NCBI RefSeq assembly: GCF_004010195.1
Contig: NC_057710.1
Location: 95,905,041-95,969,040, forward strand
Reading direction: 5' to 3'
Source: Chiloscyllium plagiosum
Taxonomy: Eukaryota
Length of the DNA: 64,000 nt
Shown piece after piece: positions 2,761-62,962 of the stretch. Each line of letters begins with the position of its first letter. Within the stretch, counting starts at the first letter, position 1. The translations under genes and the position numbers were made by a program. A model generated the notes under the pieces. The model made no database searches. It worked only from the letters and a program-made list of their open reading frames with translations, and was not told where the DNA came from.

Positions 2761-3030
2761 AGGCGGCATGGTGGCTCAGTGGTTAGCACTGCTACCTCAC
2801 TACGCCAGGGACCTGGATTTGATTTCACGTTCAGGTGATTGTCCATATGGACTTTGCATATTCTCCCTGTATTTGCATGTGATTCCTTCCACAGTCGGAT
2901 GATGTGCAGGCTAGGTGGACTAGCCATGGAAAATGCAGTGGTGGGTGCACGTGGGATGCTCTTCAGAGGTCAGGATGGACTCAGTGGGCTGAAAGGCCTG
3001 CTTCCAAACTGTTGAGAGTCAATGATTGTA
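2761..3030 (+). mobile_element. tRNA-derived SINE (shark HE1/V-SINE-like)
   Basis: A-box head ggtggctcagtggttagcactgct..ctcac, V-SINE-like core, CR1-like tail. Homologous to 39835-40140, 51553-51853 and 54689-55018. Confidence 0.8.
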
Positions 3031-10395: not shown

Positions 10396-10542
10396 TGTTT
10401 TGCTGTACGTTCCCTGGGTTGGGTAGAAATGGCAGAGGAAGACCTGGCACCTGGAAAAAGCAGTGTTGCTGTGAATAACTGCATCCGGCAGCTCTCCTAT
10501 TGTAAAAATGACATCAGGGACACAGTTGGAATTTGGGGAGAG
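10396..10542 (+). CDS. APBB2: APBB2 (FE65-like 1) internal coding exon, start of PTB1/PID1 domain, phase 0-0, 147 nt
   Basis: ttgcag|TGT acceptor and GAG|gtaaga donor. Translates [49 protein letters not shown], matching the vertebrate APBB2 PTB1 sequence as I recall it. Confidence 0.96.
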
Positions 10543-11105: not shown

Positions 11106-11233
11106 GGTAAAGACATGTACCTCATACTAGAAAATAATATGTTGAACCTAATTGACCCCATGGATCGCACTGTTCTTCATTCTCAACCAATTGTCAGCAT
11201 TCGTGTGTGGGGTGTAGGTCGAGACAATGGGCG
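11106..11233 (+). CDS. APBB2: APBB2 coding exon, PTB1, phase 0-2, 128 nt
   Basis: tttcag|GGT acceptor and GGG CG|gtaagt donor. Translates GKDMYLILENNMLNLIDPMDRTVLHSQPIVSIRVWGVGRDNG(R), in frame with the previous exon. Confidence 0.96.
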
Positions 11234-14260: not shown

Positions 14261-15009
14261 AGTGCTGCACTTAAAGCAGTAAGGCTTGCTTTATCCCCTG
14301 ATTGTAAGTAGGCATGACAAATATAAAGAACTGAAATGTTTTCTTCATTGAAATTTGAAAGCCAAATTCCATTATCCTGCTATGTTTGCTTTCCTGGGGA
14401 GCAAATGCCAGTTTAATGAAGCACATTGAGGTGTGATATATAAAGAGTGCAATGTTGACCCAGGAGTGCCTTAAGTATAACATCAAAAAGCTTTTATCGG
14501 TTCCCCTCCTGTGGCATGATGAATTTTTTTTCTCTCACAGTGTATTAGACGAGCTTATAGTTTATCTCAGCAGCTAGATTAGCAAGCGTGCTGATCAACA
14601 TTTTGTCTTCCTGTCAAATCTGCCACTGGACATCAAACATATTCTAAGGATATTAGTGATGCCTGAAATAACTCCAGTAACCCTGAGTAGTTGAACCATT
14701 CTTAAATATGTCTCCAATATAAAAGGATATTTGCAGGTGGGGAAAATTAATTTGACTCCCTTGGTGCCTGATATGTAGGAATTATGCAAAGTAAAATTCT
14801 TTTGTGCAGATTCGTTTGTTTTGGTATAACAGATAATGCTGTTAAATATATAACATATCTTGGGGAACCTAATAGGCAGATGCTTTTCAATTATGCAATA
14901 AATTGGTATTACACTTGCTGTGAAGCCAGATATACTGGTCACTCTTAATCTGGAAGTTATTTTTAAATTAAGATCATCATATAGTTATGAATTTTATTTT
15001 TCTGAAGTT

Positions 15010-17540
15010 GGAACAGACATAGCAATTACAGAAACATGGCTCAGGGATGGGCATGACTGGCAGCTTAATGTTCCAGGTTACAAATGCTACAGGAAAGATA
15101 GAAAGGGAGGCAAGAGAGGAGGGGGAGTGGCATTTTTGATAAGGGATAACATTACAGCTGAGCTGAGGGAGGATATTCCCGGAAATACATCCAGGGAAGT
15201 TATTTGGGTGGAACTGAGAAATAAGAAAGGGATGATCACCTTATTGGGATTGCATTATAGACCCCCCAATAGTCAGAGGGAAACTGAGAAACAAACTTAT
15301 AAGGAGATCTCAGCTATCTGTAAGAATAATAGGGTGGTTATAGTAGGGGATATTAACTTTCCAAACATAGACTGGGACTGCCATAGTGTTAAAGGTTTAA
15401 ATGGAGAGGAATTTCTTAAGTGTGTACAAGACAATTTTCTGATTCAGTATGTGGATGTACCTACGAGAGAAGGTGCAAAACTTGACCTACTCTNNNNNNN
15501 NNNNNNNNNNNNNNNNNNNNNNNNNNNNNNNNNNNNNNNNNNNNNNNNNNNNNNNNNNNNNNNNNNNNNNNNNNNNNNNNNNNNNNNNNNNNNNNNNNNN
15601 NNNNNNNNNNNNNNNNNNNNNNNNNNNNNNNNNNNNNNNNNNNNNNNGGGAATGCTGGATGACTAAAGAAATTGAAGGTTTGGTTAAGAAAAAGAAGGAA
15701 GCATATGTAAAGTATAGACAGGGTAGATCGAGTGAATCCTTAGAAGAGTATAAAGGAAGTAGGAGTATATTTAAGAGGGAAATCAGGGGGCAAAAAGGAA
15801 ACATGAGATAGCTTTAGCAAACAGAATTAAGGAGAATACAAAGAGTTTTTACAAATGCATTAAGGATAAAAGGGTAACTAGAGAGAGAATAGGGCCCCTC
15901 AAAGATCAGCAAGGCAGTCTTTATGTGGAGCCGCAGACAATGGGGGAGATACTAAATGAATATTTTGCATCAGTATTTACTGTGGAAAAGGATATGGAAG
16001 ATATAGACTGCAGGGAAATAGATGGTGACATCTTGCAAAATGTCCATATTACAGAGAAGGAAGTGCTGGATGTCTTGAAACGGGTAAAGGTGGATAAGTC
16101 TCCAGGACCTGATCAGGTGTACCCTGGAACTCTGAGGGAAGCTAGAGAAGTGATTGCTGGGCCTCTTGCTGAGATATTTGTATCATCGATAGTCACAGGT
16201 GAGGTGCTGGAGGTTGGCTAACGTGGTGCCACTGTTTAAGAAGGGTGGTAAGGACAAGCCAGGGAACTATAGACCAGTGAGCCTGACGTCGGTGGTGAGC
16301 AAGTTGTTGGAGGGAATCCTGAGAGACAGGATGTACATGTATTTGGAAAGGCAAGGACTGATTAGGGATAGTCAACATGGCTTTGTGTGTGGGAAATCAT
16401 GTCTCACAAACTCAGAGAGAGTGATTGAGTTTTTTGAGGGAGTAACAAAGAGGATTGATGAGGGTAGAGCAGTAGATGTGATCTATATGAACTTCTGTAA
16501 GGCCTTTGACAAGGTTCCCCATGGGAGATTGATTAGCAAGATTAGATCTCGTGGAATATAGGGAGAACTATCCATTTGGATACAGAACTGGCTCAAAGGT
16601 AGAAGACAGAGGGTGGTGGTGGAGGGTTATTTTTCGGACTGGAGGCCTGTGACCAGTGGGGTGCCACGAGGATTGGTGCTGGGTCCTCTACATTTTGTCA
16701 TTTACATAAATGATTTGGATGCGAGCATAAGAGATACAGTTACTAACTTTGTAGATGATACCAAAATTGGACAGTGAAGAGGGTTACCTCAGATTACAAC
16801 AGGATCTGGACCAGATGGGCCAATGGGCTGAGAAGTGGCAGATGAAGTTGCAGGTTCATAGCTCCTTGAAAGTGGAGTTGCAGGTAGATAGGATAGTGAA
16901 GAAGGCGTTTGGTATGCTTTCCTTTATTGGTCAGAGTATTGAGTACAGGAGTTGGGAGGTCATGTTGCAGCTGTACAGGTCATTGGTTAGGCCACTGTTG
17001 GAATATTGCGTGCAATTCTGGCCTTCCTATCAGAAAGATGTTGTGAAACTTGAAAGGGTTCAGAAAAGATTTACAAGGATGCTGCCAGGGTTGGAGAATT
17101 TGAGCGAGAGGGAGAGGCTAAACAGGGTGGAGCTGTTTTCCCTGGACTGTCAGAGGCTGAGGGGTGACCTTATAGAGGTTTACAAAATTATGAGGGGCAT
17201 GGATAGGGTAAATAGGCAAAGTCTTTTCCCTGGGGTCACGGAGTCCAGAACTAGAGGGCATGGATTTAGGGTGAGAGGGGAAAGATATAAAAGAGACCTA
17301 TAGGGCAAGGTTTTCACACAGAGGATGGTACGTGTATGGAATGAGATGCCAGAGGAAGTGGTGGAGGTTGGTATAATTGCAACATTTAAGAGGCATATGG
17401 ATGGATATATGATTAGGAAGGGTTTGGAGGGATATGGGCCGGGTGCTGGCAGGTGGGACTAGATTGGGTTGGGATATCTGGTCAGCATGGATGGGTTGGA
17501 CTGAAGGGTCTGTTTCCATGCTGTACGTCTCTATGACTCT
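15010..17540 (+). mobile_element. CR1-clade LINE (HER1-like), 5'-truncated ORF2 with APE endonuclease and reverse transcriptase, broken by stops, frameshifts and deletions
   Basis: ORF fragments IAITETWL, HYRPP, VGDINFPNIDW (APE) and KSPGPD, PGNYRPVSLTS, SQHGF, KAFDKVPH, LVRPLLEYCVQFW (RT); 3' tail ctctatgactct. Confidence 0.95.
15494..15647. other. Assembly gap (154 N) inside the CR1 LINE
   Basis: Run of N. Confidence 0.99.
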
Positions 17541-19289
17541 AAATGCTTGCATGAAGGGCTGACATTTACACCTTTTAATCTATACACTGCAGGTTAGTGA
17601 GTACAGCTGTGTAGTCTAGGCCTCTCTTTACATGTTTCTTTCTAGTCTGATCTCTTCTGCTCTGCTGATGTCAGAGTAAGGTCATCATTTGCATATTCCA
17701 TTATACCTCACCCTACCTCCTACCTCTGGTTCTCTCCCACTTGATTTATGGTAATTCCAGTAATTTATTTTTAATTATTTGCATGGTTATTATCATTTAC
17801 ATCATTATCATAAACCCCTCTTCCACAAAGTCCAGGTTTCTCAGACTGAAATGATTTGGGACTCACAACTGATTTAGTTTCTTGATTTTCACACAAGAGT
17901 AATCGTTCTTTACCAAGCCTGGAATTGTTATACCATTCTATAAAGTATTCATTATATTTATTGGATATCTTTGATCCACATCCTGTGATAATTGTACTCA
18001 GTCTCACTTGGCCCATTGGAGACACTGTACCAGAATAAGTAAATTGTTTGAGTTCGCAGGTATTCATGTTTACAAACCAATCCTAGTCACCTAGGTTCAT
18101 TCATCCTTTTGTAAAATGGCCATTCTCTAAGTGTACAGCAGGATGTGATACAAAACTGTAAGCCCTATTTTCATGCTACTTTTTAAAAATAGGTTTAAAA
18201 TGAACAAATACTTCATTTATGTACTTGCACCAAGTGAAATACTGAAGACCGTGTGAGCATTTTTAGAAAGCATTTCTCATTAGGATCTAATCCGAATTTA
18301 TAAGACCTTAAGAAATAGGAGCACAATAGACCTTTCATCTATCAAGGTTTGCTCCACTGTTTGATAAGATGAAGGAGCAATCTGAGGGTGAGGGCAAGAA
18401 TTTTCAATTAGATAGAATTAAATACAGGGAAGCATCAAAACCTAAATGCAGAGACTAATGGAGGTGATGGGTGAGTGTAAGTTAGTGCTCTATTATAAAA
18501 TCTCACAATATAATGGGTGCTCGATGGCTCGATGTGCGTGTGCTAGCTCTTTGGAAGAGTTACCCCATTGGTCTTGGTCCTGATTTCAGCAGGAAACACC
18601 TGTCCTAGGCTGTATACTAGCATGTCTAATTTTTAAATGCGGAAAGATCAATTGTGAAAAAGACACTCCAGACTATTCCCACCAACCCTTCTCCCAACAA
18701 GGTAACTCAAGGTACATGAAAACAAAGGATTTGACGCCATTGGTGGGACTCTACTTGTGATTACTAATAGGGTCTATATAGTATTTCATTTTAGTTGAGT
18801 ACCTCACCTTTTCTGTGTCCATTTTGAAGTGCAGAAACTAAGGTTGGATAAAAGTCATTGTATTAATGTATGTTCATAGGGTACCAACACTGTAGTGTTT
18901 CTGGTATTCAGGCTAAAAGCAGTGGGCAATGAGGTGGAAGACTTTAGAAATACAACTACTCCATCTCTTTAAAAAAACATTGAAGATGAATATTTTATAA
19001 CAATGCAGTTGTAATGGAGTTTTTTGAAAGTAAGACCTTCAGTTGCGTAGCTATTATCCAACACTTTTTGCCTAGGCTAATCAAAAAACACATCTTTGTC
19101 AGTTGCTTTGGAAGTTCTACTCTAAAGGGAATCAACAAAAATGTATAGTTTTTATGAAAATCAGAACATTTTAAGTGTTTGCCGTTAGAGAATGATCACA
19201 TTGCATCCAGTTTATTAAATGTTTATAATTATCTGTTCAGCTGTCCAGATCCAGAAAAAATGTAGTCCCAGCTCAAGGCTTTAAGTTTA

Positions 19290-25500: not shown

Positions 25501-28500
25501 CCTGGGAGTTAAGGGTGTGTGTAATAAGTTGGGATTCAGTTGAGTAGATATCTAGGAGATAGACTAGGTATTTAATGGACTATCCTGTCCTGACATAGGA
25601 GTCAGCTCCAAATTTGACTATTTAAATGGATACTTTAAAAGTTCCTAGTGAAGGGGAATTGCCCATTGGAATCTTCAATTTTCCAGACAATTCCTTCAGA
25701 GTCTGCTACGATGGAGATGGCACAGGATTCCAACAAGCACCTCCCATCTGCATCTCAAACGATTATCTGGCTGTTAGAAAATCCAGACTATTTATAGCTT
25801 TTGTATGATTGAAGTAATACATTGAAATGGAGCTGCTAAGAATAGCTAAAATAATTAATTTTAGAATGTTATGTACCACTGTCAAGACATTTTTAAAGCA
25901 TTATTGATAGATTTTATCTAGCACATTTCTGTCCAGCCTCATTTTTGAACCTTGAGATCCACTTTATTGAGTGTAATATTTAAAAAACATGGAAAAATGT
26001 GTGCCAGATTCTTTTAAAACTTGTACAGGTGCTTGTTGTATGGAAGAATACTGATTGGGGGTTGAATCAACTGCTCTAATTATCCTTAAATAAGATCTAA
26101 ACAGACATTTTTGTGTATTGGAAGAGTGCGCTGCAATTTTTTTATTTTTAAATTTAGTTTCAGGGTGACAATTTCCACTTTATTGTACAAAGCTCCAACA
26201 GAGAACAAAAATAGATTTTCATTTGATACAGATTTAGTGCTGCATTCTTCAGAGAGTCTGTCAGAGGAGGGATTTTACAAAGCTATGTTGAGTTATTTCA
26301 AAGTTTAAAAAATATTCTGTTTATAAAATGGCAGTTCAAGTTGTCTGTGAACTAAATATTAAAACAAACTTGTTTGTCTGTATTATACAAAGTTAAATTC
26401 TTAAACTTCATTCATGCAGTCAGCATCAAGCCAGTTATCTTTAGTTACACACAAATGAAGAGATAATATTAAAAGACAAGAGGAGCTTAGTTTAAGGAGG
26501 ATCTGGCCAAGAGCAAAGCAAGCAAAACATTTGTCTTCTAATATGTTGGGAAAATGGTTATTTAAAAAAAAAGATATTTCAATATTGGTTTTCCTTGGAT
26601 ATTATTTTTGGTGGTTTGTAGAAGCAGAGACTGTGTCACAAAGGTTTTAACCACTTTATTATTTAAGCTTGAAATACACTTTTTAATTACAGGTCTGAGG
26701 GACATTCATTCATGTATATTGTATAAGGTGCTTGCAAGCTTTCCTTGGGGGATTTTGTTTAATTTGAAAAGTGAATGCAGAAAGACCTTATTTTACATAT
26801 TCCTTCCACCTCAAGGTCAACTTACACATTAGGTTGGTTTCATTGATCGTTTCACTTTTTTAATATTGTGGGCAGAGACTGGGGATATTTGCTGAATGAG
26901 TTTAGACAAAATGCTGAGTGTTAACTGGGGAACTGCAGATCTTAACAATAGATCCGTTAAGATTGATGACCTAATAAAGACTTGCTAAGTTGCTACGTTC
27001 ACTGAATTCATTTTTCAACAATTATTATCTTTTGCCAATAGTATGTTTCCTTAGTTACTTGTGTGTTTTTAGCTTTTTAATAGTTGAAGGGAATAACAAT
27101 AACTAGGTTTAAATGAGCCAATCTAGGATTTAGATTAAGCTCAAAAATGGTAGTTTCTTTGTAGCAAGGGTATCATCACAAAAATTGCAGAGAAATTTTC
27201 TAGATAGAACACTATATAAACAAAATTCACATGTTTGCAAAGTCGACTTAAAGCAATTTGTTTCCCTGTTGGATTAGAGACATTAATTATCGGAATATCC
27301 TGGATAAAGTTGCAAGGGATTGCTCTGCTTGTAGTGACAGATTGGTGGAGAATGTGTTGTGTGAAGTGCTTGCAGCATTGACAGGAGGCTTTTCTACTCT
27401 GTAGCAGTTGCTTATAATCAGTAAGCCATCTGAGGATGTAACTCGGCTACTGTCTGCTGTGCAAGTGCGGAAAGGCTGAAAGAAATTGGATCACCATATT
27501 AATAAATGAATAAGCTGTCATTCTCGGGAGGTTCTCCACAGGTCAGTGAAGTACATGGCTATATCAGGAGCACTCAGCATCACCTGATGCATACGAAAGC
27601 CTGAGGGAATGATTCCAGTCAGCGTGTTGTCTGTAGTGTGAAGGCATCTGACGTGCCCAGCAGCTTAATTTCTTTCTGCTGCAGTAATTGAAGGGGGTTA
27701 GGAAGGGAAATTAACAGCAACCCAAGTAGCATGCTACACAGACCATGTTAGTTCCACTTTAGACCTTCTGCCAGATGTTCTAGAGTGAAATGAAGATTGC
27801 GCTTTCTAGCATGATAAAGAAATATATTCATAGTCCCTTAGGATGGCAGTTTCCTCATGCAGAGATATATATCTGCAGTACTGTAAGTACTTGATGTTTT
27901 GTTATTTTTACAAACTGTACAGGACTGGCAATTACAGTAGTGCATGATGTGGCTCATATTCAGTTCTTTCTGTCTGAAAGATTGGTAACTTTATGGCTTT
28001 GAACGTGCTGTGGTCGCAAACACGTGAAAAAGATTGCTTTGTTAAAAACTGTGCTGGGAGCAAATGCATTGGTAAATATGTGCACTATTATGCTAAACGT
28101 TAAATTGTACAATTGCAATCAATCATCTGGAAGGCAATTAGAGCAGTTGCTAGTCCTGTGCAGTTACGTTGTGGTTGTTAGGGCTTGTGGTGCCAGCGTT
28201 GAAATTTGTGAGCTTTAACCATAGTGGATTTGTTAGTAAAGATAATGCGTGTAATGCGTATGGCACCACAAAATAGTGTGCTAGAGTGGGAGAAACAAAA
28301 GATCATTTCTATGTGAAATAGCAGTAAACAAAAACTTGGCAATATTTCCAATCAGTTCACTACCAACCTGGCATGAAGTGGCACATTTATATTGCTACAT
28401 ATTGAGTTATATTAACAGGATTTTAGTCTAAAATAATTTGTTTCCTGATGTGCTTCTTGACAAAAACTTGCCACTGCAACAATTTTATGAAAGTGGGCCA

Positions 28501-42525: not shown

Positions 42526-42793
42526 CATGATTTGGAGATGCCGGTGTTGGACTGGAGTGTATAAAGTTAAAAATCACACAACACCAGGTTATAGTCCAAC
42601 AGGTTTAATTGGAAGCACTAGCTTTCGGACCGCCGCTCCTTCATCAGGTAGTTGTGGAGGACACAATTGTAAGACACAGAATTTATAGCAAAAGTTTACA
42701 GTGTGATGTAACTGAAATTATGCATTGAAAAATACCTTGATTGTTTGCTGAGTCTTGCATCAGTTCGATTGCCATGATAGTTTCACTTCTTTT
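42526..42793 (-). mobile_element. Penelope-like end, family B
   Basis: Reverse complement of about 5905-6170 with scattered differences. Confidence 0.8.
42616..42650 (-). ncRNA. Minimal type-I hammerhead ribozyme, family B, catalytic core intact
   Basis: Reverse complement TAC-CTGATGA-A-GGAGC-ggc-GGTCC-GAAA-GCTA-GTG. All core nucleotides present, one stem II mismatch, AGCT palindrome, CUA triplet. Confidence 0.8.
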
Positions 42794-43073: not shown

Positions 43074-43185
43074 CTGTAAACAAATGAATATGTTTAATGT
43101 GATAACCTTTTCTATGTTTTGTACATTTTCTCCTTGTTGTTCATTGCATTCTTTCTGATTTTTTCCTCTGCTTTCCTGGACTCAG
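43074..43185 (+). promoter_or_regulatory. Microexon intronic splicing enhancer: extended polypyrimidine tract with UGC motifs (SRRM4/SRRM3-type)
   Basis: No AG dinucleotide for 110 nt; U/C-rich; TGC 15-17 nt upstream of the 3' splice site (ctctgctttcctggactcag). Confidence 0.7.
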
Positions 43186-43191
43186 TGAGAG
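43186..43191 (+). CDS. APBB2: APBB2 6-nt microexon (TGAGAG), phase 2-2, adds Glu-Arg (DNGR-ER-DFAY)
   Basis: ctcag|TGAGAG|gtaatt. Preceded by a long pyrimidine tract, a 110-nt AG-free zone (43074-43183) and TGC motifs at 43145 and 43169. Splicing gives CG|T GAG AG|G GAT = R-E-R-D, the known FE65-family insert. Confidence 0.88.
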
Positions 43192-44769
43192 GTAATTTTT
43201 ATTTATTTCTTAATAAAGCTCAAACTGCCAGGATAAGAGATTGTGTTACTATTAAATGTAAATAACAAAATGTTTAAGCTGTGGCCAAGTAGAGATGCCA
43301 TTTCACCTTGTCCTCCAAATTCATGCTCTTAATTCAGTGATTTGATCTGGCTTCAGGACTTTCCCTTCAATTGTTTTTGATGTGTGTTGCATTGAAGAAC
43401 TGAATCCTCCTTCAAACCAAATTTACAGATTAATCTGAAGCTTCCCAAAGTGGTAGTTTGGACCCCAAGTGGGGTTACAAACGCCAGGGCAGTAGTGGCC
43501 TAAACACGCAGCCTCACACTGGTATTGACATTGATAAACCATTTTACTCTTCATGTAATAGGCCAAACATTCTGAAGACTGTGGATTGTAGAAAACAGCA
43601 TGTACCTTTCACTGTTCACAAAAAGTAAGGTACTGAACTTGCCCAACTAGCTCAAGCTTGTGAAACTGGCAGTCACAATAGAAATGATTCTGCAATTGAA
43701 TAGCATTTGCTATGTAGTCTTGAGTATACAAAGAATTACATCGACAACCAATTTCGGATTGTCATTCAAGCTTGCCTTATATACGATAGAAGCTACATTA
43801 ATAGACGGTGCCCTGTTCTTTGCAGACGGAAGGAACATATATACACATTGTGCATTTACAACTCACAAGTTACTGGTGGCCACTCTCAGGTTCATTTCTC
43901 TAGATTATTAGAATCTAGAATATAGCAACAAATTGTCCAGAAGATGCTATAACCACAAAAAATTCTGCACTAACAAGTTGTGGATATGGTTTCAGTGCAA
44001 CTTTTCGCTTGAAGTGACTATTGCTAGTGAAGTTTTGTTCTAATATCGCTTTATCGTTCTGTTCATTCCCATCTCCTCTACATGTTTTGTGATTAAGAAT
44101 TGTAAAAGGATAAAAATAATAAACCCTCCAAAATTTGTGACATTAAATCAATGGATATGCTCTGTTTGATAATATGAACGGAAAATGTGTACAGAAAATC
44201 CTATGATGCTAAATCTGAAAAATGTTGCCCTCTTATCTGAAGTAGAACTGGAAAAGGTGAGCCTACTGCGTTTGTGTGTTTAGCAAAAGTATACGGGCTA
44301 TGTTAAGAGAATAGGTTAATTTGTCCAAGCAGACCAGCAGTCAACTAGTTTTCCTAACTTGTAATCCTGAAATAGAATACTAAAGTTCTCATTATCTGAT
44401 ATGTCACTAAACAAACAAACAGTTTTTGCAAAATTGTGAAAAAACTATTAATTGGTATAAAAGGATAGGAGCTAATCAGAATTGTTGTGTACCTTCATAG
44501 GGCATTAAGATTCATGTTAATTTCATTGATCTCTTATCAATCTTGCTTATGCTGTTAGGGGCAGAGATAATTTAATGGTAAGATGCTTGCCCCTTGGACT
44601 ACATTCACAACAAAGCAACTACAGAGCATTCAGAAAGCTGAAAGCATAAATCATTCTTCAAAGTGAGAGTCACGAATAGAATACCTTTAAAATTAGGCTG
44701 GAATGTTGAAATCAAATTTCACTTCTGTAACACCTCTGTTTAAAAGGAAATCCCAAGTAAAGAATATGG

Positions 44770-51552: not shown

Positions 51553-51853
51553 TATAGAATCATTGAACCCCTACAGTATGGAAGCAGGCCACACAGCCTA
51601 CCAGGTCTACACCAACCCTCCGAAGAACATCCTCCCCAGATCCTATCCCTGTAACCCTGTATTTCCCATGGCCAATCCACCGAACCTGCACATCTTTGGA
51701 CTGTGGAAGAAAACTGGGGAACCTGGAGAAGACCCATGCAGACACGGGGAGAATGGGGAAAGTCCACACAGACAGTCACCCGAAGCTCAAATCAAACCTG
51801 GGTCCCTGGTGCTGTGAGGCAGCAGTTCTAACCATGGGTCACTGTGCCACCCC
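51553..51853 (-). mobile_element. tRNA-derived SINE (HE1/V-SINE-like)
   Basis: Reverse complement of the family seen at 54689-55018. Confidence 0.88.
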
Positions 51854-53924: not shown

Positions 53925-54235
53925 ACCCAGAACAAACCTTTTGGTCCAAATTGTTAGTGCCGACTAGTCGTCCCATTTGCCAGCATTTGCCCCATATTTA
54001 TCTAAACCTTTCCGATTCATTTACTCATCTAGTTGCTTTTTAAATGTTGCAATTGTACCTCTGGCAGCTCATTCCAAACATACACTGCCCCTCAGGTCCC
54101 TTTTAAATCTTTCCTCCTCACCTTCAACCTATGCCCTCTCCTTTTGGACGCTCTCACCCTGAGAAGAAGACCAAGACTATTCACCTTATCCATGCCTCTC
54201 ATGATTTAAAAACCTCAATAAGGTCGCCCCTTAGT
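53925..54235 (-). mobile_element. CR1 3' fragment nested in the older LINE
   Basis: Reverse complement similar to 17150-17520. Confidence 0.8.
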
Positions 54236-55018: not shown

Positions 55019-56121
55019 AATTTCAGATCATAAACCCTGTCTCCATCTTGTTTTTCCTTTCCTAGTTTTCTCTTATTTTATTTGTTTCTTAATTTCATCC
55101 CTTCAAGTTGCATTCAGATTGGCCTATAGTCTCTGGAATTTATAAGACTGAGATATATAAGACTCTGAAAAGGATCGACAGGGCAGGCATGGAGAGGTTG
55201 ATTTGCCCTGGCTAGGAATCAAGACTGTGGCAGCTCAGTCTCGGGATAAAGGGGCCAGTCAGTTAGGACTGTCAATCTTAGGAATTCTCTGCCCCAGTTG
55301 TGTGGGGCAGGTGAGAAATGGAGTTGAAGCCAATAATTGGGTGTGATCGTGCTGAATGGTACAACCAGCTACAGGTTATATGATTGTCTCCTGTGCTGAC
55401 CCCTCGTTATACATAAAACACATTTAGTACATGAACTTCAGGTGGTTTCTTATCCCCTGAACTCCGAGACTGAAATTCTATATTATATGCACTAGTAAAT
55501 GTAAGTTTATAATGTAGGTCATTACCTTAGAAATGATTGCCTTTATTGATGTGCCTTTTCAGGATGCTGTTAAGTGGCAATAGGTTTTGAATTTGAATGA
55601 TTACTGCCAGGTGTCAGAGAAAAAAATCACACCCATTTGCATGAAATACTGTATTAAACTAAATATCTGCAAAGTACACAATCTGTCTGGTTTATAATTT
55701 GTTGCTCCATGGACCATAAATTACTGTTGGAAATATTGCAAAGGAAGACTTGATGCATTCTAACGCGATTTCTCTCTGCAATTTTAATGGATTGATGCAT
55801 CTGCCAAAATAGGAAAGTTATGCAAGCACATTACGCATTAGCCACAGATACTGTCATCAGTTACTTCCAAGCATGTGTTGTTTCAAAATTGTTTTGTTAC
55901 TTTTACTATACATCAATGAAAGTTAATAAGGACCTAATGTTTTTCTGATGATACAAGTGACACTGTTATTTGTGTGTGATGCCTTAATATTGACAATAGA
56001 ACATACTGCTTCTCCGTCAACAAATGAGAAAAGGTTTGTCAACCTCAGTGTTATTTAAGTGGCGCATGAGGCAATTTTGATAAATAATTGCAGCTAATGT
56101 CTCACATTCTTATTTGCGCAG

Positions 56122-56236
56122 GGATTTTGCCTATGTCGCAAGAGATAAAGACACACGAATCCTAAAATGTCATGTGTTCCGATGTGATACACCAGCAAAA
56201 GCCATTGCAACAAGTCTTCACGAAATCTGCTCCAAG
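56122..56236 (+). CDS. APBB2: APBB2 coding exon, C-terminal part of PTB1, phase 2-0, 115 nt
   Basis: Branch-like gctaat at 56093, gcgcag|G acceptor, AAG|gtgaga donor. Translates (R)[38 protein letters not shown]. Confidence 0.96.
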
Positions 56237-57382
56237 GTGAGAGCAAATTTCCATCAGCTCTGAACCCTCCTATGCGAATGGATTCACTCACCTTGAGTGT
56301 TGTTCACAACATTTAGCATTTCTGGGTATTTTATAAAGTCTGTCTTTACAGTTATAATCCAGGCACATCATTTACCAGAAGCACCTCCAGCCACCATCCA
56401 TCTCGCTGCCATAAAGACAAAACTGAACAGTATTTGTTGAAATAATTGGGCATTTGCGTTTTGTTTTCTGATACCTGTGGCAGTACTTCCCAAATGTCAT
56501 CCAACTGTAACTCTGTTTTGAGGCATGTAAATGGATGTGATGGAGAAGTGAGAACTGCAAAGGTAAGGGAGGACACCTGTGAGAAGAAAGAGGTCCTGTG
56601 TAAATGGGGACCTGCCGGTTAAGTCAGTCAGAGCTCCAACAGTGGCCATTTCTGCCTTGGAGCTCGTGGCCCCATAAATTCAGCTTGTGGCGCATTTGTT
56701 AACTTTTGTGGGAAGCCATGGCCTAGAGGGTAAGGTATAATCTTTTAAACAAGTCATTTGCATCAGCAAAGATGTAGGGTTGGAGAGGGTAGGTGAAGAG
56801 GAGTTGGAGATATGTTCACATACCCCAGTATAGAGGATAAATCACAAACCTGGTAAATTAAGAGAGCAGAAAGTCTAAAGATTAGCATCAGGTCGAAGGC
56901 ATTGGTGTTGCAATGCTGATAGAATGGCATGGATGTATGGACTGCAGTTATACTAGAACTGTAGCTATGATGTAACTAAGTTTGGCGAAATCACCACACT
57001 TCAGTGGTTCTACCAAGGACAACTTTGGATTTCTGATTTTTTTAGGAAGAGTTTCAACCCTGTTAAAGAAAGAAAGAATAAACAAACAAACATTGCCCAT
57101 TCCGTTATTCTTAAAATGGTATACAGTATTCCCAAATACTAATGCTGAGTTTCCACAGAAAGTGTTGAGTAAGAGATCCAACCTGACTACAACAAATCAG
57201 GATCTGAATCTTTTGAGGCATCATTCATATCATTTTAAGTGGAGGTTGATGGCTTAACATTGTGAACAGAGTTTATGTACCGTGAATACTGACAACAATC
57301 TGTGATGTCTTTATGCAAAGTTAATTGTGAAATCAAAATAGAAATTTTACATTCATTGTATAATCAAATTAATAACTTGGTG

Positions 57383-57448
57383 CATGAAGGACATGCACCA
57401 TGAAGGACATGCACCATGAAGGACATGCACCATGAAGGACATGCACCA
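57383..57448. repeat. Perfect 16-bp tandem repeat x4 (catgaaggacatgcac)
   Basis: Units start at 57383, 57399, 57415 and 57431. Confidence 0.97.
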
Positions 57449-62874: not shown

Positions 62875-62962
62875 ATAATGGCAGAACGAAGGAACGCCAA
62901 AGCTGTGGCTTGCAGTATCTCTCAGGAACGAGTCAATATGAACCTTGACGTTCCTCTACAAG
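62875..62962 (+). CDS. APBB2: APBB2 coding exon, PTB1-PTB2 linker, phase 0-1, 88 nt
   Basis: Branch-like actaat at 62852, ttctgcag|ATA acceptor, CAA G|gtaaca donor. Translates IMAERRNAKAVACSISQERVNMNLDVPLQ. Confidence 0.95.

Follow-up and report, generated by a model that had tools for sequence, protein, structure and literature searches.

The APBB2 gene of the carpet shark Chiloscyllium plagiosum raises the question of whether six nucleotides set far inside a long intron form an exon and, if so, how the inclusion of this exon is controlled. The window, by which the whole analysed stretch of 64,000 nt is meant, contains part of the gene, and a first-pass annotation of the same letters had proposed a neural microexon there.

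The microexon and its host exons

The site ctcag/TGAGAG/gtaatt named by that annotation is present on the plus strand (Table 1). Its distances to the neighbouring exons, put at ~32 kb and ~13 kb, correspond to introns of 31,952 nt upstream and 12,930 nt downstream, and placing the microexon between 11106-11233 and 56122-56236 keeps the reading frame and yields GVGRDNGRERDFAY, which includes the announced DNGR-ER-DFAY. When the microexon is skipped, 11106-11233 runs directly into 56122-56236 and yields GVGRDNGRDFAY. Both junctions beside the microexon are in phase 2, and inclusion therefore converts DNG-R-DF to DNG-RER-DF, which lengthens PTB1 by two residues (R to RER) at residues 510-512 of shark APBB2.

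The host gene was identified from its coding exons. A protein search with the upstream exon, whose query took in a single intronic base, gave 1,272 proteins, and among the best 120 of these all named entries are APBB2, the remainder being a few hypothetical or uncharacterised proteins. Four other host exons were placed by tblastn. The site has the properties that define the PTB1 microexons of the APBB family: an APBB paralogue as host, a length of 6 nt, AG and GT borders, an open frame and the GR-ER-DF position.

Table 1. Features of the APBB2 locus (positions are those of the window)
Feature	Position	Strand	Remarks
APBB2 coding exon, start of PTB1, 147 nt	10396..10542	+	tblastn; five-exon translation open
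APBB2 exon upstream of microexon, 128 nt	11106..11233	+	ends in phase 2, donor gtaagt; 3' end joins 56122 in all three contig sets
Likely alternative first exon, coding end (MQRYISAV.., phase 2, donor gtaagt)	27857..27882	+	exact N-terminus match to RefSeq short isoform P0130
AG-exclusion zone, 110 nt	43074..43183	+	AG-free throughout; 68% pyrimidine overall
Pyrimidine tract proper	43106-43175	+	81% pyrimidine
Microexon site ctcag/TGAGAG/gtaatt	43181-43197	+	read from sequence
Microexon 3' splice site AG	43184..43185	+	read from sequence
6-nt APBB2 microexon TGAGAG	43186..43191	+	in PTB1; sole RER-coding AG..GT site on intron plus strand
Microexon 5' splice site gtaatt	43192..43197	+	7/9 consensus matches; same count in the gene's other four donors
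APBB2 exon downstream of microexon, 115 nt	56122..56236	+	spliced contigs span whole exon
Next APBB2 exon, 88 nt	62875..62962	+	tblastn; its start is the contig loose end behind 56236

A short APBB2 isoform of 258 aa, with 27857-27882 as its likely first exon, lacks most of PTB1. The N-terminal peptide encoded at 27857 is found unchanged in the short isoform of C. plagiosum, and one residue separates it from its counterparts in two other carpet sharks. Because this exon lies upstream of the microexon and ends in the same phase, it could splice to the microexon; the zebrafish apbb2b event likewise lists two upstream donors (PMC12626424).

The remainder of the window contains several unrelated features. 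Broken open reading frames at 14902-17543 (+) have the look of a LINE-type retroelement, with endonuclease- and reverse-transcriptase-like text recognised by eye, and are interrupted by a gap of 154 Ns (15494-15647). A perfect tandem repeat with a 16-nt unit in 4.1 copies occupies 57383-57448. Dispersed repeats of ~100-300 nt, likely remnants of SINE or LINE elements, occur for example at 2762-3030, 42526-42792, 51555-51851 and 53970-54234, and the self-similar share of the window is ~8%.

Transcripts, isoforms and orthologues

Transcript evidence came from three contig sets, one per coded organism, in which tissues are coded and rarer forms are dropped. They belong to four runs compared out of 24 listed; the fourth, a single-cell raw-read run sampled at about 2 in 100 of its letters, gave no reads at the locus and carries no weight. 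The skipping junction, from the upstream exon direct to 56122, was found in all three (one contig each; runs compared over 55900-56500), and each contig covers 56122-56236, preceded by the upstream exon and followed by the exon that starts at 62875. The contigs confirm the gene structure and show that the skipping form is spliced. The inclusion junction was seen in none of the three sets, a weak negative given that tissues are coded and contigs lose rarer variants.

The five-exon inclusion translation (161 aa) is matched exactly by 4 of 212 proteins, all of them RefSeq isoforms of C. plagiosum, and the skipping translation (159 aa) by 14 of the 212, from Rhincodon, Chiloscyllium and Hemiscyllium (species labels partly completed from accession series). 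These exact matches, with the N-terminal peptide at 27857, point to a carpet shark as the source, likely a Chiloscyllium. The microexon is already annotated in this shark, in RefSeq inclusion isoforms that are predicted models. Among the listed proteins, isoforms with RER account for 6/7 in Scyliorhinus canicula, 4/8 in C. plagiosum, 3/7 in Amblyraja, 4/10 in Callorhinchus and 4/8 in paddlefish, as well as two of the seven listed Logan proteins of a skate cluster; eel, tarpon, gar, crocodile, turtle, birds and marsupials contribute further examples among the first matches. The conservation that the first-pass annotation had named as a check is borne out at the protein level, with the RER isoform spanning elephant shark to marsupials. 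In one Arapaima model (P0084), RSV takes the place of RER at the junction, probably through a mispredicted splice.

Published work covers the same exon. Li et al. (2015) described a 6-nt exon for each of the three APBB genes; the positions are paralogous, the splicing is alternative in mammals, chicken and fish, and the age exceeds 400 My, with only the APBB1 exon entered in the text supplements (PMC4317164). A 2026 preprint that covers 20 bilaterians, elephant shark among them, reports two neural exons as bilaterian-ancestral, of which the APBB1/2/3 exon is one (10.64898/2026.09.05.749416). The paralogous APBB1/FE65 mini-exon 9 (HsaEX0005055) is likewise neural, has 6 nt at the same PTB1 position and encodes E462-R463 (PMC8304848); the solved chain of human FE65 PTB1 (3d8d) carries GRERDF at the aligned position. 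The shark host is distinguished from APBB1 by its best matches, which are APBB2, and by DNGR where 3d8d has DSGR.

The APBB2 microexons of human (HsaEX0005072), zebrafish (DreEX0013859) and chick share gene, length, PTB1 position and residues with the shark exon and differ from it only in species; inclusion, tissue pattern and response to SRRM3/4 have been measured in zebrafish, chick or human. In zebrafish apbb2b, PSI values for the 6-nt exon are 94.65 (neural tissue), 96.87 (endocrine pancreas) and 0-14.4 (remaining tissues with data), and its dPSI is -34.42 in the eMIC mutant; for the human exon, a dPSI of +65.4 is given for neural tissue and of +99.06 upon eMIC overexpression (PMC12626424). 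Inclusion in chick brain climbs over HH15-27 (PMC12871342). The main text of PMC12626420 does not contain the string 'apbb', and a literature search, with subscription papers mostly outside its reach, returned no report of the exon in a carpet shark.

These records bear on how new the site is. The earlier interpretation of an APBB2 exon in a shark, likely acting as an SRRM3/4-dependent neural switch, is supported, and its implied novelty falls away, as the APBB2 microexon itself, not that of APBB1 alone, has been published and RefSeq already lists inclusion isoforms of four cartilaginous fishes. The shark microexon is real but already known, a copy of a vertebrate-wide microexon; having been described across vertebrates, it is in this sense ordinary.

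For APBB2, the function of the insert is entered as unknown in the chick study (PMC12871342). Inclusion of the APBB1 microexon, mini-exon 9, is reported to enhance binding of KAT5/Tip60 (reviewed in PMC8911335). Single microexon deletions in zebrafish, an apbb1 line included, produced mild phenotypes or none. Li et al. (2015) used PDB 2ROZ to place the microexon residues, but the APBB2 chain of this structure aligns to shark residues 582-705, that is, to PTB2 (PMC4317164); since the insert lies in PTB1, the APP-tail contact predicted there is by cross-domain homology. The inclusion isoform was also modelled with AlphaFold (12-sequence alignment); the mean pLDDT was 32.8, with PTB1 mostly below 50, and the model was discarded.

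Acceptor architecture and competing explanations

The region in front of the microexon had been described as a 110-nt AG-free pyrimidine tract. It is free of AG over exactly 110 nt, but the first ~32 nt are A-rich, pyrimidines make up only 68% of the whole, and the tract proper is confined to 43106-43175 (81%); between -35 and -16 their content reaches 85%. TGC lies at -41 and -17, as claimed in general terms, although it is weak evidence alone, being found within -30..-6 at 467 of 1,481 control intronic YAGs (32%). Motifs of the branch-point type (yUnAy) occur at -92, -46 and -31. An AG-exclusion zone, an extended pyrimidine tract and a UGC between branch point and AG, the features of SRRM3/4-type acceptors, are all present, and the four ordinary acceptors of the host gene have AG-free zones of only 26-38 nt. 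Predicted RNA folding of 43074-43230 does not exceed that of shuffled sequences (z -0.15). A second microexon-like site at 44559-44577 (+) comprises 19 nt with an AG-free zone of 47 nt, a TGC and the donor gtaaga; its length is not a multiple of three and would shift the frame, and it is probably due to chance.

Known members of the neural microexon class have a shifted pyrimidine tract and a distant branch point (PMC12871342). In the SRRM3/4 (eMIC) programme, UGC between branch point and AG is found in 74-79% of targets and is not strictly required (10.1101/2024.09.17.613571). The shark microexon shares with this programme a length within 3-27 nt, preservation of the frame, a long shifted pyrimidine tract and the UGC, and no departure from the class was found.

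A site of this kind might also be a product of chance, or a decayed exon, and be left unspliced in this species. The bare motif would allow for this: on the plus strand of the 44.9-kb intron, an RER-coding AG..GT motif occurs once against 0.51 expected (0.12 with YAG and GTR), and the minus strand, taken as a control, also contains one, so that the motif alone is not beyond chance; the reads, moreover, gave skipping only. Its coincidence with the 110-nt AG-free, pyrimidine-rich acceptor argues the other way. Only 6 of the 4,222 AG-free gaps in the window reach at least 100 nt, which puts the joint expectation at ~2e-4 (post hoc, with independence assumed), and the zone is the longest among the 47 YAG-6nt-GTR sites of the intron. 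The RefSeq isoforms identical to the window exons also need an RER-coding exon in this intron, where the microexon is the only plus-strand candidate. An accidental or decayed site is accordingly very improbable.

The exon could also be a true alternative exon that, in the shark, is not restricted to neurons or is driven mainly by NOVA, RBFOX or release from PTBP1 rather than by SRRM3/4. The shark transcript data, with their coded tissues, are not tissue-resolved, and YCAY occurs at -45 and again from +107 to +130 relative to the microexon; UGC is missing in some dynamic neural microexons, and NOVA1 rises together with SRRM4 (PMC12871342). However, TGCATG does not occur within 500 nt of the microexon, the zebrafish and human orthologues, both tested, respond to eMIC (PMC12626424), and neural regulation is reported as ancestral for the APBB exon family (10.64898/2026.09.05.749416). 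Control of this different kind appears unlikely.

With high confidence, the site is a 6-nt in-frame APBB2 exon of a carpet shark at the known PTB1 position of APBB1/2/3, an exon that most tissues likely skip and that neurons likely include under SRRM3/4. The splice signals and the frame, the position in PTB1, the host gene and the splicing of the skipping form were observed directly; from the orthologues we infer the default skipping and the neuronal inclusion driven by SRRM3/4. The microexon would be too short for normal exon definition and, by analogy with the orthologues, would be skipped by default. In neurons, and probably in endocrine pancreas, SRRM3/4 may act via UGC between branch point and AG, for which the TGC at -17 is the best candidate, and the long AG-free pyrimidine tract may help SRRM3/4 to promote inclusion. 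The two charged residues might then tune the binding of partners by PTB1, as reported for APBB1 with KAT5/Tip60.

The exon in older and newer annotations

The first-pass annotation had also expected the exon to be missed by automated annotation. This proved true of all newer-style RefSeq sets seen and untrue of most older-style sets. When 139 of the 212 proteins were grouped by species according to RefSeq name style (RefSeq proteins that span the junction, which sets aside Logan entries and models of GenBank or Ensembl type; listed matches only, at most 15 per cluster, with cluster representatives alone from the search with the upstream exon), the RER insert was present in 15/20 older-style species vs 0/34 newer-style species and in none of 82 newer-style proteins. 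The same division holds within cartilaginous fishes (older-style 4/5 vs newer-style 0/17), for isoform X1 (with RER in 5/7 older sets vs 0/15 newer sets) and within the softshell turtle Pelodiscus, which was counted on both sides (four of seven older isoforms, none of three newer ones). Name style serves as a proxy for date by inference from accession series, and a lack of brain libraries could account for some cases.

That 17 shark and ray lineages have truly lost the exon is unlikely: absence follows name style, not phylogeny, as the genera Chiloscyllium and Scyliorhinus both have members in the older-style as well as the newer-style group. The pattern suggests that recent automated annotation drops the 6-nt exon, and on balance we favour, with some reserve, a systematic omission of the APBB2 exon from newer automated RefSeq annotations. 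A change of RNA-seq aligner in the NCBI pipeline may be the reason why RER is missing in the newer sets; one recent NCBI annotation used STAR.

For the biology of the gene, the locus adds little beyond a further example of a textbook neural microexon, the age and regulation of which have already been described, and its value in the shark is that of a correct, hard-to-spot annotation. The apparent omission could mislead isoform and exon-loss comparisons. If it is true and extends to the shortest microexons in general, a layer of neural isoforms would be missing from recent vertebrate proteomes and comparative studies would read false exon losses.
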